Origin: a virus
Strand: one strand, 5' to 3'
Length of the DNA: 64,000 bases
IMG/VR virus record: IMGVR_UViG_3300017763_004709
Coordinates: 11,829-75,828 of that record
Part shown: in pieces, positions 11,509-50,739 of the stretch
How the letters are laid out: each line of letters starts with the position of its first letter
Position numbering within the stretch: the first letter of the stretch is position 1
Made by a program: the position numbers and the translations under genes
The notes under the pieces: generated by a model
What the model saw: the letters and a program-made list of their open reading frames with translations, nothing else
Told to the model about the DNA's origin: nothing
The model's database searches: none

Positions 11509-12176
11509 TAAATATCTTCCATTCTTTCATCATCGTCTACTCTTAAATCAGCAGCTACTGCTTCTGAAAAATAGGCGGTATTACGAAGTAAAAATTCTTT
11601 TTGAGCTTCATAGGTTGGACGTTTGAAGATTTTCTCTAGCTCAAAAAGTTCAGCATTTTTTTCTTCTTCTGTAAGAGGTACAGTTCTTCTAGAAGGGATA
11701 CAAGTATATTTTACATTCATAACTTGTGGTCCAGTTTTTTCTTTCTTGATAGTAATGTCATATCCTTCTTCTGTGTCTGAAGGATTACCGTACTCTGGGT
11801 TCATAGCATAATCTAAGATTTGTCTATAAATAGTAGGTTTAAGATCGAATAGCTTAATAGTACCATCTTTTCTATCTACTGCATTACATACATAAGAGAA
11901 TACAGGTTTATCTTGATAAATATCAGGATCAATTTCTTTTACAGGATCAATGCCTTCCTGCTCTTGAAAGGTTTCATTTTCTCTTACGAAACTTAGACAC
12001 TCGATAGGAGTTCTTTTACCTTCGTTATTGGTTACCCAATAAACAAAACGAGGCATCACGTCTCCAATTAATCTAAGTTTATTTTCTCCTTCTGTGAGCT
12101 TAATACGCTCAATATTTCTATTCCCCCCGCTATTATTTGCAGGTTGTACTTTTAAGTTTGTCCATTGTAAGGCCAT
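11508..12176 (-). CDS. single-stranded DNA-binding protein (T5 D11-like)
   Basis: GEN.LRLIG..MPRFVYW, IECLSF, GYDI...K.KTGP...NV.Y; acidic tail; synteny. Confidence 0.8.
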   Translation of the reverse strand: MALQWTNLKVQPANNSGGNRNIERIKLTEGENKLRLIGDVMPRFVYWVTNNEGKRTPIECLSFVRENETFQEQEGIDPVKEIDPDIYQDKPVFSYVCNAVDRKDGTIKLFDLKPTIYRQILDYAMNPEYGNPSDTEEGYDITIKKEKTGPQVMNVKYTCIPSRRTVPLTEEEKNAELFELEKIFKRPTYEAQKEFLLRNTAYFSEAVAADLRVDDDERMEDI

Positions 12177-27721: not shown

Positions 27722-28314
27722 TTTGTTACTTTTTTTCTTGAGAAATTTCTATATTCATCAATAATACTTATAATATAAGGATCTAAAGGTTCTATACCTT
27801 CTCTTACAAATTTTTCTATTTCGTCTTTTTGATTATTATTAAAGTTACTTTTATAAATAGAAGAACGATATACTCCTCTTGTTTTAGAAGGATTACCAAA
27901 CACTTTAGAGAAAGGTTTTACATCTTTTATTATGGGCGAAAATGTTCCTATAAAAGAATGACTACCTACTGTAGAGTAATTTTGTATATGAGCATTATAC
28001 TCTATATAAACATTATTTTGAATAACACTATGAAAACCTAAGTAACAACAACCTGTTATAGTATTATTATTGCCTATCAAAGTATCACTATTAATAGTAG
28101 TACTTGGGCCTATATAATTGCCACTTCCTATAACAGTATTCTCTCTGTAACCAGTTGCGCAGTTAATAACACATGCTGAAAGTATGGTATTGTTTTTACC
28201 TAGAGATATTCCATATTTATCATCTTTTACTAAAAACACCACTGAAGGGTCAATAGTATTAGAAGAATCTATAGAAAATTCTATAATAGCTTTGGAGGCA
28301 GAGTATACTTTCAT
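27718..28314 (-). CDS. hexapeptide-repeat (LpxA-like) acyltransferase
   Basis: IG.N hexapeptide repeats; KDV.PF..V.GNP. Confidence 0.75.
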   Translation of the reverse strand: MKVYSASKAIIEFSIDSSNTIDPSVVFLVKDDKYGISLGKNNTILSACVINCATGYRENTVIGSGNYIGPSTTINSDTLIGNNNTITGCCYLGFHSVIQNNVYIEYNAHIQNYSTVGSHSFIGTFSPIIKDVKPFSKVFGNPSKTRGVYRSSIYKSNFNNNQKDEIEKFVREGIEPLDPYIISIIDEYRNFSRKKVTK

Positions 28315-28336
28315 AGTGCTATTCAAAATAATGAGT

Positions 28337-28595
28337 GTCACTTTTTCTGTTGCTAGGCAAGTGACCAGCCCCCTTAATCATGCAGCTAGTGCGTAATTAG
28401 ATGGTGCAAAGTTATCGTTTGCGTTTGTAGTTTTTGGCTGAATATCGTAGGCCAACACGGTAATCTACTCTCATCTCTACACACCTGTCGATCCTAGTTC
28501 AGCCCCATAAGAAACACACTTATCTTAATGTGTTTATGGTGGAGCTGTCGGGTACTGCCCCCGAGTCCAGTATGTATGTTGAATTGTATCAACGA
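28337..28595 (-). ncRNA. ssrA: tmRNA, circularly permuted two-piece (alphaproteobacterial type); tag ANDNFAPSNYALAA
   Basis: Acceptor piece ...GGACTCGGGGGCAGTACCCGACAGCTCCACCA (ends 28537) precedes a 30-nt spacer and the coding piece GGGGCTGAA..GGATCGAC (starts 28506); tag ORF 28422-28378; PK1 and terminal pseudoknot pair; outer ends approximate. Confidence 0.95.
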
Positions 28596-28633
28596 TTACA
28601 AAAAAGAGGTTTAAAACGATAGATGTATCGAAG

Positions 28634-47282: not shown

Positions 47283-47995
47283 CTGCTATAATATTTGATG
47301 TAGACGGTACTCTTACAGACCCTAGAGAAAAAATAGATCCTTTCTTTTTACAAGAACTTGTAGGATTATCTATGTCTTATAGTATTTATTTAGCTACAGG
47401 AAGCGACTACGTTAAAACAGAAGAACAACTAGATACGTGGTTTTTAGAGAACATAATTTCCTATAGTTTTAATTGCTCAGGAAACTCTGTATGGCAAAAA
47501 GGACAAGAAGTATATAGAGAAGACTGGATTACTCCTACCGAAGTATTAGATTGGCTTAACAGTGAACTAACTGAAAGTACTTTTGAACACAAGACAGGGT
47601 TTCATTTTGACAAAAGACCTGGTATGCTAAACTTTAGTATAGTTGGAAGAAATGCTACACCTCTACAAAGAGTATTATATTCTGAGTTTGACAAAAACAC
47701 TAAAGAAAGGTTAAACTTATCTATAAAGTTTAATAATGCTTTTAAAGATAAATATAATATTACAGCACAGATTGCCGGAAGAACTGGTTTTGACATATAT
47801 AGAGACGGTAAGGATAAGAGTCAAATATTAGATTACTTTGAAAATATTCCTATATTATTTTTTGGCGATGACACTCAAGAGGGCGGTAATGATCATACGT
47901 TAGCTAAAGCTATCGAAGAAAGAAACAATAAAGAAGATAAAGTATTTAAAGTATCTTCTCCTTCTGAAACAAGATATTTAGTTTCTCTTCTTTAA
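47279..47995 (+). CDS. HAD-IIB phosphomannomutase (PMM/Sec53-type)
   Basis: FDVDGTLT.PR, TGSD, R.GMLNFS.VGR, FFGD...GGND. Confidence 0.85.
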   Translation: MTAIIFDVDGTLTDPREKIDPFFLQELVGLSMSYSIYLATGSDYVKTEEQLDTWFLENIISYSFNCSGNSVWQKGQEVYREDWITPTEVLDWLNSELTESTFEHKTGFHFDKRPGMLNFSIVGRNATPLQRVLYSEFDKNTKERLNLSIKFNNAFKDKYNITAQIAGRTGFDIYRDGKDKSQILDYFENIPILFFGDDTQEGGNDHTLAKAIEERNNKEDKVFKVSSPSETRYLVSLL

Positions 47996-48011
47996 ACACT
48001 TGTTTAAGATG

Positions 48012-48145
48012 AGGGGCTGGTCAAGTGATGCCAGTAAACCATAAAAATCACTATGGGTTATGTTAAACTATCCTATCCGAAAAAAATTGTTTAACCACTA
48101 TTCTGCTAGTGTAACTAAGTCCGTTATTTCGGAAACGGCAGCAGA
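48012..48145 (+). ncRNA. candidate structured ncRNA 1 (five hairpins, three tertiary pairings)
   Basis: Intergenic; complementary loops AGTGAT/ATCACT, TCCGAAA/TTTCGGA, TCTGC/GCAGA. Confidence 0.6.
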
Positions 48146-48146
48146 T

Positions 48147-48190
48147 AAAAAGGCGTTCTAACTTATAGTAAGAGCGCCTTTTTACTTTTT
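48147..48190 (+). terminator. intrinsic terminator (A- and T-flanked)
   Basis: AAAAAGGCGTTCT/AGAGCGCCTTTTT. Confidence 0.8.
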
Positions 48191-48210
48191 TAATTATAAG
48201 GAAAATATAA

Positions 48211-48789
48211 ATGTCTACCGTACATAAGATATTAAAAAATGCGTTAAAAAACATGAACTATGTAGGCTCCGGGTGTTATGCTGCTGCTTTTGATAGTAAT
48301 AAAGAAATAGTTAAAATAGGAGCAGATATATTTGACCCTTATTTATATTATCTAAGAGAAATAAAATCATTAAAAAATACACATTTTCCTAAATTTCATA
48401 GTTTATATGTAGATAACTATAATGAGTTTTATACTGTAAAGCTAGAGAAACTATATCCTTTAAATGATAAACAACTTAAAGATTACGAACAACTATACGA
48501 CTGGGCAGTAAAAGGAGAAGATAAACCTTGTTGGGCTAGTGAAGAGCTAGAAGAAGCTGTTAATAAGATAGTAGATTTAGCAGATGTAATATCTTTACAA
48601 CCTTCAGAGGATTTAGAGTATGAAGGGCAGACAGGAGATTGTAGATTAGACCTTCATGAAGCCAATGTAATGAGTCGATCTGATGGGACATTAGTATTTA
48701 CAGATCCTCTTTCAGATGCCCAAATGTTTGATGCCCCTGCTATAGAAGAGTGGATAGATGACTATCTTTATTATACCAATAAAAAGTAG
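48211..48789 (+). CDS. protein kinase, T7 gp0.7-like
   Basis: GSGCYAAAF, VKIG...D, YTV.LE.L, DLHEANVM, TDP. Confidence 0.75.
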   Translation: MSTVHKILKNALKNMNYVGSGCYAAAFDSNKEIVKIGADIFDPYLYYLREIKSLKNTHFPKFHSLYVDNYNEFYTVKLEKLYPLNDKQLKDYEQLYDWAVKGEDKPCWASEELEEAVNKIVDLADVISLQPSEDLEYEGQTGDCRLDLHEANVMSRSDGTLVFTDPLSDAQMFDAPAIEEWIDDYLYYTNKK

Positions 48790-48832
48790 TTTTATTCTTG
48801 CTTATTACTTATTTTAATAGTATTATGATTAT

Positions 48833-48985
48833 ATGATGAAAAAACAAATAAAATTTAATATAAAATCTGTAGAAGATTTACATAAACAAATGAATGAGTG
48901 GGTAGATGCAAATCTACCTATAGAAGAGATAAATAATACTAACTTAGCGGCTACAATGCTAAAAAGTATAGGAATAAAAGTATAG
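48833..48985 (+). CDS. 50-aa hypothetical protein (absent from ORF track)
   Basis: ATG 7 nt after TTGCTT-17-TATTAT; stop overlaps first base of tRNA-Arg. Confidence 0.5.
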   Translation: MMKKQIKFNIKSVEDLHKQMNEWVDANLPIEEINNTNLAATMLKSIGIKV

Positions 48986-49061
48986 GTCTCTTAGCTCAGC
49001 TGGATAGAGCAAGTGCCTTCTAAGCACTAGGTCTCAGGTTCGAATCCTGAAGAGATCACCA
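48985..49061 (+). tRNA. tRNA-Arg(UCU)
   Basis: Cloverleaf, CTTCTAA loop, CCA encoded. Confidence 0.95.
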
Positions 49062-49242
49062 AGATAGGCAAAGGGGAAAGCCTAGCGATTTCGCTAAACG
49101 TACCCAACAAAGGTCCTAGACATGGAAGAGTGGCCCTCTAGTCTAGTCCGGTATAAGCACTGGTACCGCATAACCCAGTCGGTTGCTGCATACGTCAAAT
49201 GCAGATACGTGGGGAGGCACTGCAGAAAGCCTCCCCACCGAT
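49062..49242 (+). ncRNA. candidate structured ncRNA 2 directly after tRNA-Arg
   Basis: GC-rich island with about seven stems and an H-type pseudoknot. Confidence 0.65.
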
Positions 49243-49278
49243 TCTATAGAGTTATATCTATGTAACAAAGGATACACT

Positions 49279-49437
49279 ATGAGAAGAGGTACTAAGCCTA
49301 ACCCCATAGATTATATTAAAGTAAGAATAGATCTACTACGTGAAGAAAAGAAAAAAAACGAAGATAATACTGCTCACTTAGTATTAGATAAAGCAATTTA
49401 TGAGTTAAGTGTTGTTTTAGATCTTCTAATAAGATAG
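49279..49437 (+). CDS. 52-aa hypothetical protein
   Basis: AAGGA SD; start MRRGTK rather than track start 49183. Confidence 0.6.
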   Translation: MRRGTKPNPIDYIKVRIDLLREEKKKNEDNTAHLVLDKAIYELSVVLDLLIR

Positions 49438-49449
49438 TAGTTATACTAT

Positions 49450-49524
49450 TCCGGCGTAGCTCAGTGGTAGAGCAGTTGACTGTTAATCAATTGGTCGTAG
49501 GTTCGACCCCTACCGCCGGAGCCA
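49450..49524 (+). tRNA. tRNA-Asn(GUU)
   Basis: Cloverleaf, CTGTTAA loop, GCCA end. Confidence 0.95.
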
Positions 49525-49529
49525 AATTA

Positions 49530-49605
49530 GGGTCTGTAGCTTAGTGGTTAAAGCTGCCCGCTCATAACGGGTAGATCGTAGGTTCGAATCCTACCGGACC
49601 CACCA
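49530..49605 (+). tRNA. tRNA with CAU anticodon, probably Ile2 (lysidine type)
   Basis: G1-C72 paired so not an initiator; CCCG-CTCATAA-CGGG arm resembles Ile2. Confidence 0.88.
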
Positions 49606-49608
49606 TAT

Positions 49609-49680
49609 ATGGGTGAAGTGTTAATGGTTGCACATCGGATTCCAAATCCGAAAGACAGAGTTCGATTCTTTGCACCTATG
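49609..49680 (+). tRNA. tRNA-Trp(CCA)
   Basis: ATGGGTG/CACCTAT acceptor, TCGGA-TTCCAAA-TCCGA arm, GTTCGATTC; followed by CCCA. Confidence 0.85.
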
Positions 49681-49697
49681 CCCAAAGGAATATTAGT

Positions 49698-49922
49698 ATG
49701 TATACAGTAGAATTTGATCATGATGAAGTAATTATAACTATATTAGACGACTCAGGAAGTTTACCAGATCTAATAATAAATAGTTATGACGATGGAGTAT
49801 ACATTACTCAAATGGATGAAGATGGTGATTATGATGATATACTTAACATAACTCCAGAAATGTGGCAAGAGTTGATTTTAGCTATAAACAGCTCAGAAGG
49901 AGCTTATGTTATAAAGAGATAA
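49698..49922 (+). CDS. acidic hypothetical protein inside the tRNA island
   Basis: ORF with AAGGA SD. Confidence 0.7.
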   Translation: MYTVEFDHDEVIITILDDSGSLPDLIINSYDDGVYITQMDEDGDYDDILNITPEMWQELILAINSSEGAYVIKR

Positions 49923-50006
49923 GCCCGCGTGATGGAATGGTAGACATAACAGACTTAAAATCTGTGGCCGCAAGGCGTGCCGGTTCGAGTCCGGCCGCGG
50001 GTACCA
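49923..50006 (+). tRNA. tRNA-Leu(UAA)
   Basis: Type II cloverleaf with variable arm, CTTAAAA loop, CCA encoded. Confidence 0.95.
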
Positions 50007-50010
50007 ACCA

Positions 50011-50147
50011 GCGTGACAACTACGCACTCAAATATACTCCGGACTCTGTATTGGTTGAGAAATAGTTGTACTTGTAAGTCGTACTTTGTAGAGTATTTAC
50101 TTATTATCTGAGGGGGTTATATAAGTAAACATTCCAAAGAGCGACCA
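50011..50147 (+). ncRNA. candidate structured ncRNA 3 ending in ACCA
   Basis: Pseudoknot domain plus long rod between tRNA-Leu and the terminator. Confidence 0.55.
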
Positions 50148-50184
50148 CAGCCCTCCTAGTTTTTTATACTAGGAGGGCTGTTTT
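50147..50184 (+). terminator. intrinsic terminator closing the tRNA island
   Basis: ACAGCCCTCCTAGT/ACTAGGAGGGCTGT 14-bp stem plus T-run. Confidence 0.88.
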
Positions 50185-50250
50185 ACATCTAAACTTAATA
50201 AAATAAAATTTAACATTAGTCATAAATAATGATACTATAGAGTATATAAA

Positions 50251-50739
50251 ATGTTTACAAAACAACAAATTGAAGAATTAGTAGAATTACTAGTGACGCT
50301 GGATTCTAATACAAAAATATATCTAGGCTGCGATTCTGTAACTTACTTTAAAAATAATAGAAAAAAAGCAAAATATGCTACGGTACTTATAGTACATAAA
50401 AATAGTAAAAATGGTTGTAAATTATTCTCTAATACCTCTTATGAAGTAGATTATGATTTAAAAAAAGACAGACCTAAAATGAGAATGATTTATGAGGCTA
50501 GAAAAGTTTGTGAATTATATATACAAGTAGCGCCTTTTATAGATGAGTTTGATATAGAAATACATTTAGATATAAACACAAATCCTAAGTTCGGATCTAA
50601 TTGTGCTGCATCGGAAGCCGCTGGATATATTTTAGGTATGACAGGCATCACACCAAAATTAAAACCTTTTGGTTTTGCAGCGAGCTACGGTGCAGATAGT
50701 GTAGCCAAAGGTAGAGGAGTAGTTATTGTACCACACTAG
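50251..50739 (+). CDS. RNase H-fold YkuK/DUF458-family protein
   Basis: IYLGCDS, R...E, IEIHLDIN, S, KP...AAS..AD. Confidence 0.85.
   Translation: MFTKQQIEELVELLVTLDSNTKIYLGCDSVTYFKNNRKKAKYATVLIVHKNSKNGCKLFSNTSYEVDYDLKKDRPKMRMIYEARKVCELYIQVAPFIDEFDIEIHLDINTNPKFGSNCAASEAAGYILGMTGITPKLKPFGFAASYGADSVAKGRGVVIVPH

Follow-up and report, generated by a model that had tools for sequence, protein, structure and literature searches.

Since the description of species 1 and 2 of T4, phage tRNA regions have been known to encode stable RNAs without an assigned function. These RNAs, rnaC and rnaD, whose roles are unknown (PMC3014915), are small, are encoded immediately behind tRNA-Arg(UCU) within the tRNA region and are released by tRNA processing. 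GOLLD (RF01998) and ROOL (RF03087), which are encoded by phages and prophages, have recently been shown to be RNA-only cages. Both form homo-oligomers through kissing loops, and their bridges are supported by covariation from one palindrome to another, a criterion that has served for intermolecular bridges in OLE as well as GOLLD (PMC12286853). Here we describe RNA2, the second of three spacer RNAs (RNA1, RNA2 and RNA3) in a tRNA island at positions 48012-50739 of a 64,000-nucleotide (nt) stretch of viral DNA (IMG/VR record IMGVR_UViG_3300017763_004709, positions 11,829 to 75,828). This whole stretch is referred to as “the window”, and coordinates are window positions unless otherwise stated. 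Judged by its covariation, RNA2 (49063-49244) is certainly a real structured RNA, and it belongs to a widespread family of RNAs of ∼140-180 nt that is uncatalogued and found in viral contigs only.

RNA2 shares with GOLLD and ROOL a phage genome, frequent placement beside tRNA islands and the lack of a known protein partner. Like GOLLD, it combines a conserved 3′ part with a variable 5′ part, and it carries the same sign of covariation, which would point to an oligomer. It differs from both in being far shorter (140-180 nt versus >500-800 nt), in being restricted to marine viral contigs, and in matching neither RF01998 nor RF03087 at the gathering threshold or at E values up to 10. Like T4 rnaC and rnaD, RNA2 follows tRNA-Arg(UCU), both here and in many T4-like marine contigs. 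Homology with the T4 RNAs was considered and rejected: a covariance model of RNA2 (R1, see below) scored at best 1.3 bits on T4 70.7-71.4 kb with filters off, and no conserved words were found. T4 rnaC and rnaD are therefore positional analogues of RNA2 and not relatives. An initial annotation of this DNA had drawn the comparisons with GOLLD/ROOL and with T4, which are apt as analogies.

Fold and range of the RNA2 family

RNA2 starts 2 nt past the CCA of tRNA-Arg. Its 5′ domain and core contain the following elements.

49063-49106, + strand: 5′ domain, with P1 (49065-69/49080-84), P2 (49085-87/49092-94) and PK1 (GGG 49073-75 with CCC 49103-05)
49107-49244, + strand: core, with P3, an H-type pseudoknot (S1+S2), possible P4, P5 and P6
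49115-47, + strand: P3, a variable stem with apex GGCC at 49132-35
49149-53/49164-68 (S1, CGGUA/UACCG) and 49160-63/49175-78 (S2, CUGG/CCAG), + strand: H-type pseudoknot with an A-rich third loop
49179-82/49238-41, + strand: possible P4, UCGG with YYGA, which would close a three-way junction
49186-91/49199-204, + strand: P5, loop ACGUCAA
49211-18/49229-36, + strand: P6, with a 10-nt loop containing CUGCAG at 49220-25

In the 5′ domain, the strands of PK1 match in 18/18 sequences, GGG occurring always with CCC (13/13) and GAG always with CUC (5/5), and longer re-paired versions are found in loci L071 (GACGGC/GCCGUC) and L045 (9 base pairs). P1 and P2 show covariation too, P1 being AGGC/GCCU or GAGC/GCUC and P2 existing in four stem versions. 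In each of the three RNAs the initial annotation had noted a hairpin loop able to pair beyond an intervening hairpin (48096-48145, 49065-49105 and 50011-50069), and had rated the one in RNA2 as weak. All three pairings are present in the sequence, and the one in RNA2, PK1, is in fact the best supported. The 5′ domain is optional: it occurs in about half of the family and is otherwise absent or replaced, and the core often stands directly after a tRNA CCA or a stop codon.

Pairing in the core was assessed in 39 distinct cores, in which 93.6% of cells were paired compared with 33-46% when partners were slid. Fifteen pairs changed on both sides, accounting for 142 cells versus 4-27 in slid controls, and no shuffle reached the observed value. 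C-G is replaced by U-A in 9 sequences in S1, for example, and in 11 sequences in P5. S2 sits in the loop of S1, with the A-rich loop coming next. The possible P4 is compatible with the alignment, chiefly through alternation between G-C and G.U. Frequent G.U pairs place RNA2 on the + strand, that of the tRNAs. About 50 unpaired or junction nucleotides are invariant, including GGUCGGUA, CCCAGNCGGUUG, ACGUNAAA and AGAUA.

When loci anchored on the RNase H-like gene of the island were compared by blastn, spacer 2, which holds RNA2, was the sole spacer to match distant contigs. It was just 82% identical in a contig with 98-99% identical flanks, and the alignment consisted of conserved blocks around a replaced stem. 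Three pattern scans of IMG/VR returned 9, 19 and 56 stretches. Together with the window, the 21-base core pattern of RNA2 occurs in 57 marine viral contigs, representing 42 distinct versions. The covariance model R1 was built from 39 sequences (distinct cores, alignment A2) and covers P3, S1, P5 and P6. Its score at 49108-49246 was 137.7 bits (E 2.3e-37, model positions 1-137), for a sequence that is part of the seed. Among relatives outside the seed, L089-L092 scored 137-140 bits and L093/L094 scored 53 bits. R1 detected no second copy of RNA2 within the 64-kb window.

The core pattern had no match in 185,579 prokaryote genomes (one genome per species), and blastn of RNA2 against 50,697 GenBank phage records likewise gave none. 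No Rfam 15 family matched RNA2 when the 221-base stretch was searched alone, at the gathering threshold and at E values up to 10. At the same settings, the Rfam matches were to tRNAs and transfer-messenger RNA (tmRNA) only, apart from a weak Phe_leader match treated with RNA3. The family may be present without a name among the 10,006 candidate RNAs of viruses that were catalogued in 2023 (PMC10690425).

One or more tRNAs lie within 3 kb of RNA2 in 32/57 loci, a share that may in reality be higher, with many loci cut short. Without exception they are on the same strand, and those most commonly found upstream are Arg(UCU), Pro(UGG) and Met. RNA2 abuts a tRNA CCA end in the window and in L043, L053, L072, L077 and L087, and in L081 a tRNA directly follows it. 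The family thus occurs after tRNAs, after open reading frames (ORFs) and before tRNAs, and the downstream genes differ.

Four large contigs that carry RNA2 (135-221 kb) encode Gp23 and a family B polymerase and are T4-like. The window is 64 kb out of a 75.8-kb viral contig with a CheckV completeness of 67%, and its G+C content is ∼32%. It encodes ribonucleotide reductase, an SbcC-like nuclease, a DnaB-type helicase, a family A DNA polymerase, an NAD-dependent ligase and baseplate-like proteins; neither a family B polymerase nor a Gp23 capsid gene was found in the available part of the phage contig. The occurrence of RNA2 both in T4-like phages and in a phage with a family A polymerase means that the family crosses phage lineages.

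Palindromic loops and proposed self-association of RNA2

The hexamer in the P6 loop is CUGCAG in 30 of the 39 sequences, CCUAGG in 8 and CUCGAG in 1. All are palindromes, and CUCGAG differs from the commonest word solely in the central GC, which has become CG. The P3 apex occurs in ∼13 independent, unrelated versions and holds a G/C-containing palindrome in 26/26 distinct stems, among them GGCC, GCGC, CGCUCGAGCG, CCCUCGAGGG, CCCGUACGGG, CCUACGUAGG, GGUACC, CUGCAG and CGCGCGCGCG. A script flagged 23 of the 26; the remaining three, for which the predicted fold was off, were identified by eye, and loop-shuffled controls gave ∼50%. Within one molecule, the P3 and P6 palindromes are always different words (GGCC and CUGCAG in the window). 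The small hairpin P2, which serves as an internal control, is not systematically palindromic.

Because these loops switch from palindrome to palindrome, the criterion used for OLE and GOLLD, we infer that RNA2 self-associates via two orthogonal symmetric contacts. Copies of RNA2 probably dock onto each other via their loops, and homo-oligomerization appears, from the pattern of loop sequences, to be the best-supported mechanism for this RNA. The P3 apex and the P6 loop would each form a symmetric kissing contact between copies, and such contacts could yield dimers, rings or chains, giving a stable RNA particle during infection. Loop-loop pairing also drives self-association of retroviral dimerization initiation sites and of phi29 pRNA; palindromic hexamer loops there vary between strains and stay palindromic. 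Those RNAs act in genome dimerization and DNA packaging, whereas RNA2 offers no evidence for either role.

The P3 insert (49115-49147) is exchanged for an unrelated cassette in L002 (3811-4029) and L040, though spacers 1 and 3 are 98-99.5% identical there, and the same P3 inserts turn up again on unrelated backbones. P3 therefore moves by recombination. Two natural variants help to show which parts of RNA2 are important. Reduced versions occur in L093 (3392-3500) and L094 (3367-3475). These lack the 30-nt H-type pseudoknot and keep the GGCC apex, P5, P6 and the CUGCAG loop; the version in L094 is also without most of the 5′ domain. In L038 (324-539, − strand) and L091, whose kinase-like protein is 95% identical to that of the window, a 9-nt deletion takes out the 3′ strand of PK1, GUACCCAAC.

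Other explanations of the palindromes were considered. A DNA-level reading as restriction sites was rejected: CTGCAG is not avoided (26 sites in the whole window versus 8.3 expected from shuffles), and the G.U pairs point to RNA. RNA2 might instead work as a monomer, either as a compact, pseudoknotted binder of a protein or small ligand or as a ribozyme, with the palindromes being sites for dimeric proteins or accidents of perfect hairpins. The invariant unpaired and junction nucleotides would suit such an RNA, suggesting a precise tertiary fold or an active site, as would the H-type pseudoknot with its A-rich loop, which recalls ligand-binding pseudoknots; several P3 apices are, moreover, plain perfect hairpins with tetraloops. 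The P6 loop is harder to accommodate, since it presents three different hexamer palindromes within 10 nt, where intramolecular pairing of neighboring bases is sterically impossible, and the reduced version in L093/L094 retains the loops and not the pseudoknot. No Rfam ribozyme or riboswitch family was matched, and a riboswitch is unlikely because the downstream genes vary. We therefore consider a purely monomeric RNA2 unlikely, though it is the most serious competitor to self-association.

RNA1, RNA3 and the tRNA unit

The island reads as follows, with all features on the same strand and RNA2 occupying spacer 2 between tRNA-Arg and the 52-amino-acid (aa) ORF.

up to 47995, + strand: PMM/HAD-like gene
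48012-48145, + strand: RNA1 (spacer 1), five hairpins at 48016-35, 48037-59, 48062-95, 48096-111 and 48121-38
48024-29/48047-52, 48076-82/48127-33 and 48102-06/48141-45, + strand: RNA1 loop pairings, three in all
48146-48196, + strand: intrinsic terminator closing RNA1 and spacer 1, 14-base-pair stem and U tract, −20.2 kcal/mol
48211-48789, + strand: kinase-like ORF, 192 aa, PHROG 15752 (T7 gp0.7-type protein kinase), E 6.2e-16 over residues 15-180
48833-48985, + strand: ORF of 50 aa whose stop codon shares the first base of tRNA-Arg
48985-49061, + strand: tRNA-Arg(UCU), CCA encoded (ARAGORN and Rfam, 68.4 bits)
49280-49437, + strand: small ORF after RNA2, 52 aa from ATG (ORF list and sequence)
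49450-49684, + strand: tRNA-Asn(GUU), tRNA-Met(CAU) and tRNA-Trp(CCA) (ARAGORN and Rfam)
49698-49922, + strand: small acidic ORF, 74 aa, whose stop codon abuts tRNA-Leu
49923-50006, + strand: tRNA-Leu(UAA), CCA encoded (ARAGORN and Rfam)
50007-50146, + strand: RNA3 (spacer 3), hairpin GCGU/ACGC with loop ACAACU pairing to AGUUGU 50064-69 across hairpin 50027-59, and a rod at 50078-50145
50147-50190, + strand: intrinsic terminator of the tRNA unit and spacer 3, 14-base-pair G+C-rich stem and UUUU, −26.9 kcal/mol
50251-50739, + strand: RNase H-like fold protein, 162 aa, PF04308 RNaseH_like (E 5.1e-15) and PHROG 11311 (E 1e-45)

RNA1 and RNA3 were compared with a sister lineage (L093/L094 and copies) found via kinase-anchored loci, which has the same gene order and a kinase protein 76% identical to that of the window. 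Identity to this lineage is 80-83% for spacer 1 and 81% for spacer 3, versus ∼76-77% for the island as a whole. An earlier view of RNA1 and RNA3 as unconserved untranslated region (UTR) or terminator sequence, based on blastn against loci anchored on the RNase H-like gene, was overturned by the sister lineage.

RNA1 starts 17 nt past the stop codon of the PMM/HAD-like gene. Its 46 pairs are paired in 97.4% of cells, and three pairs show double changes versus 0 in slid controls: A-U to G-C in hairpin 48096-111, G-C to A-U in hairpin 48121-38, and G-C to A-U in the loop pairing 48102-06/48141-45. In this last part of the RNA (48096-48145), the hairpin CACUA/UAGUG has a loop, UCUGC, that pairs with GCAGA beyond the hairpin CCGUU/AACGG. 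The pairing 48076-82/48127-33 contains one change from A-U to G.U, and the inner part of hairpin 48037-59 is gone in the sister lineage. Indels of 1 and 2 nt show that RNA1 is not coding. Just upstream of RNA1, the stop codon of the PMM/HAD-like gene lies within another conserved hairpin (47989-48010, CUUUAAAC/GUUUAAG), in which only the loop differs in the sister lineage.

RNA3 starts immediately past the CCA of tRNA-Leu. Its 43 pairs are paired in 99.1% of cells, with double changes at five pairs (0-1 when slid), of which three are in hairpin 50032-51, where three lineages are involved, and two are in the rod. The remaining substitutions either affect unpaired positions or strengthen a pair, and a 2-nt indel shows that RNA3 is not coding. 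The rod comprises 23 pairs and has a conserved apex, UAUCUGAGGGGGUUAUAUA. This invariant apex (50105-50123) is Shine-Dalgarno-like with no start codon after it here, and in the unrelated contig L098 an identical 19-mer precedes an ATG as a true ribosome-binding site. A Phe_leader match over RNA3 and its terminator was dismissed as spurious, with 32.6 bits against a gathering score of 55 and no leader ORF.

Pattern scans for RNA1 and RNA3 returned the same two lineages only, plus one chance match at the ribosome-binding site in L098. Searches with nhmmer over 99 loci revealed no further lineage, giving only a faint match to the 5′ UTR part in L009, and a metagenome scan with the kinase found 8 loci, all from these two lineages. 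RNA1 and RNA3 are thus conserved only in the phage clade of the window and in one sister lineage, and each ends at a strong terminator. Their compensatory changes suggest that both are probably real structured RNAs, a case that is good but thin. The island content given in the initial annotation (five tRNAs, a kinase and an RNase H-fold protein) was correct, as was its statement that two of the RNAs start near a tRNA 3′ end. It had also staked its proposal on conservation of the spacers, and comparison with relatives indicates that these are conserved structured RNAs.

The terminator after RNA1 lies 15 nt upstream of the kinase start codon and is kept in L093/L094; that after RNA3 is also present in relatives. 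As these terminators close spacers 1 and 3, the kinase, the small ORFs, five tRNAs, RNA2 and RNA3 sit between two terminators. ARAGORN and Rfam RF00005 found the five annotated tRNAs alone in the island, with no cloverleaf in any of the three spacers. The tRNAs, small ORFs and structured non-coding RNAs may form one transcription unit that is cut apart by host tRNA-processing enzymes. In such a unit RNA3 would be a processed trailer of tRNA-Leu, and RNA1 would either form a structured 3′ end to the transcript before it or lead the kinase-tRNA unit. Two small ORFs end in stop codons (48983-48985 and 49920-49922) that overlap the first base of tRNA-Arg and adjoin that of tRNA-Leu, respectively, so RNase P cleavage would leave both mRNAs without a 3′ UTR.

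Slightly less probable than a monomeric RNA2 is that these RNAs act in cis only, as 3′ stabilizers that block exonucleases, as processing signals or as terminator/attenuator leaders, RNA1 being a regulatory leader of the kinase-tRNA operon and none having a function as a free RNA. The strong terminators at the ends of RNA1 and RNA3, the short distance from the former to the kinase start codon, and relatives of RNA2 that have a U run after P6 and a core directly after a stop codon all fit this explanation. Sequence conservation of RNA2, however, goes far beyond the needs of a stabilizer hairpin; it is placed variously after tRNAs, after ORFs and before tRNAs, and in the window P6 has no U tract. 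A riboswitch-type antiterminator for RNA1 was also tried and rejected, as duplex energies were no better than those of shuffled sequence.

The kinase-like ORF has no Pfam match, and no Pfam kinase domain was found at threshold. Homologues of the 52-aa ORF are confined to the clade of the window, and the 74-aa acidic ORF has no match in Pfam or PHROG. The PF04308 match of the last ORF scored 56.1 bits versus a curated cut-off of 25, and its RNase H-like fold is predicted from the profile. Elsewhere in the window, at 28287-28630 (− strand), there is a permuted (two-piece) alpha-type tmRNA with tag ANDNFAPSNYALAA (RF04321, 127 bits; RF01849, 118.5 bits). As an alpha-type permuted tmRNA encoded by the phage suggests an alphaproteobacterial host, the host of this uncultured marine phage is probably an alphaproteobacterium.

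Gene neighborhoods and the joint reading

Co-occurrence was examined in the 52 RNA2 loci that remain once near-copies of the window are set aside. A homologue of the kinase was found in 0/52 and the RNase H-like gene in 2/52, and conversely 29/29 loci anchored on the RNase H-like gene were without RNA1, RNA2 and RNA3 within 5 kb. Neighborhood clustering of the 57 RNA2 loci revealed no protein family in more than 16/42 distinct contexts. The sole enrichment concerned the 74-aa acidic ORF, whose homologues (37-49% identity) occur in 15/52 RNA2 loci, within 4 kb and at variable distance, versus 2/29 RNase H-anchored loci. The acidic protein could be a partner of RNA2, or its presence could be plain synteny in T4-like tRNA regions, and it should be considered a lead rather than a finding. 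As a separate observation, ∼20/31 related viral loci (L001-L031) have tRNA clusters no more than 5 kb from the PF04308 RNase H-like gene, with the gene usually just downstream of them and on the same strand.

The three RNAs, the kinase and the RNase H-like protein are neighbors by synteny and not a demonstrated system. The initial annotation had proposed a single system, to be checked by co-occurrence across related phages, and the counts above, together with the restriction of RNA1 and RNA3 to one small clade, do not bear this out. Its suggestion that the RNAs are co-processed fares better in part: a tRNA unit bounded by two terminators makes release by tRNA processing plausible, and it is the joint system and the decoy function that lack support. 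Of the idea that the RNAs are parts of one assembly, possible self-assembly of RNA2 with itself remains, and assembly of the three RNAs together was not upheld. A single counter-defense system, in which the RNAs would be decoys for anticodon nucleases or other RNA-targeting defenses, is very improbable: the parts are co-located and syntenic in both available lineages, PHROG describes the T7 gp0.7-type kinase family as a modulator of RNase III and RNase E, and tRNA clusters are frequently found next to the RNase H-like gene, but the kinase and RNase H-like gene are nearly or entirely missing from RNA2 loci outside the clade, the 29 RNase H-like loci lack these RNAs, and none of the three RNAs resembles a tRNA anticodon arm.

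Sequencing runs from seawater were also searched. Most of the window is contained in 14 DNA runs from many studies, and six RNA-library runs contain 8-21% of its words. Contigs of four RNA-library runs were aligned with the island. In two runs that belong to a single study, they cover RNA1, the kinase and portions of RNA2 at ∼93-98% identity and a depth of ∼10, and in a third run a contig joins the 5′ domain of RNA2 to a different P3 cassette.

Taken together, we favor, with a probability of roughly 0.6, a joint reading in which the tRNA unit is made as one, RNA2 forms a homo-oligomer, RNA1 and RNA3 are lineage-restricted RNAs, and the neighboring genes are associated by synteny. Several observations weigh against it. 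Oligomerization is argued from sequence, palindromic tetraloops follow trivially from perfect inverted repeats, and loop shuffling of P3 as a control gives just ∼50% per sequence; in the P5 loop, ACGU is invariant and hence uninformative. Loss of the pseudoknot in L093/L094 and of PK1 in L038/L091 means that parts of the fold are dispensable or that these copies are decaying. In RNA3, the pairing of ACAACU with AGUUGU across the CUCAA/UUGAG hairpin (50011-50069) is invariant in 5/5 versions and so neither supported nor contradicted, and each compensatory change in RNA1 and RNA3 is a single event because two lineages are available. Without its terminator, the nested fold of RNA1 is no better than shuffles (z −0.4, compared with −2.6 for RNA2 and −2.2 for RNA3), noting that nested folding is blind to the three loop pairings. 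Folding energy alone is unimpressive, and support for the three RNAs as structured molecules comes from comparison with relatives. Finally, cover in the RNA libraries consists of contigs, DNA carry-over is possible and sequences of other organisms predominate in the tRNA bins, so these data establish neither transcription nor RNA ends.

A bolder version of the joint reading can be offered only tentatively, with the odds somewhat against it. RNA2 might be the smallest natural self-assembling phage RNA, a miniature GOLLD or ROOL forming closed dimers, rings or cages, in which the P3 cassette is an “address” swapped by recombination between near-identical phages so that RNA2 copies from co-infecting strains either assemble together or stay apart, with RNA1 and RNA3 as further parts of an RNA-based take-over module that is produced together with the tRNAs.

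If RNA2 does self-assemble, a 140-180-nt family with the habit of GOLLD and ROOL would be a far more tractable model of natural RNA quaternary structure, its length being suited to synthesis, mutational scanning, nuclear magnetic resonance, crystallography and cryo-electron microscopy. The natural swaps of the P3 cassette would provide a ready-made test of specificity, and self-assembling RNAs would be common among ocean phages that replicate in at least two ways.

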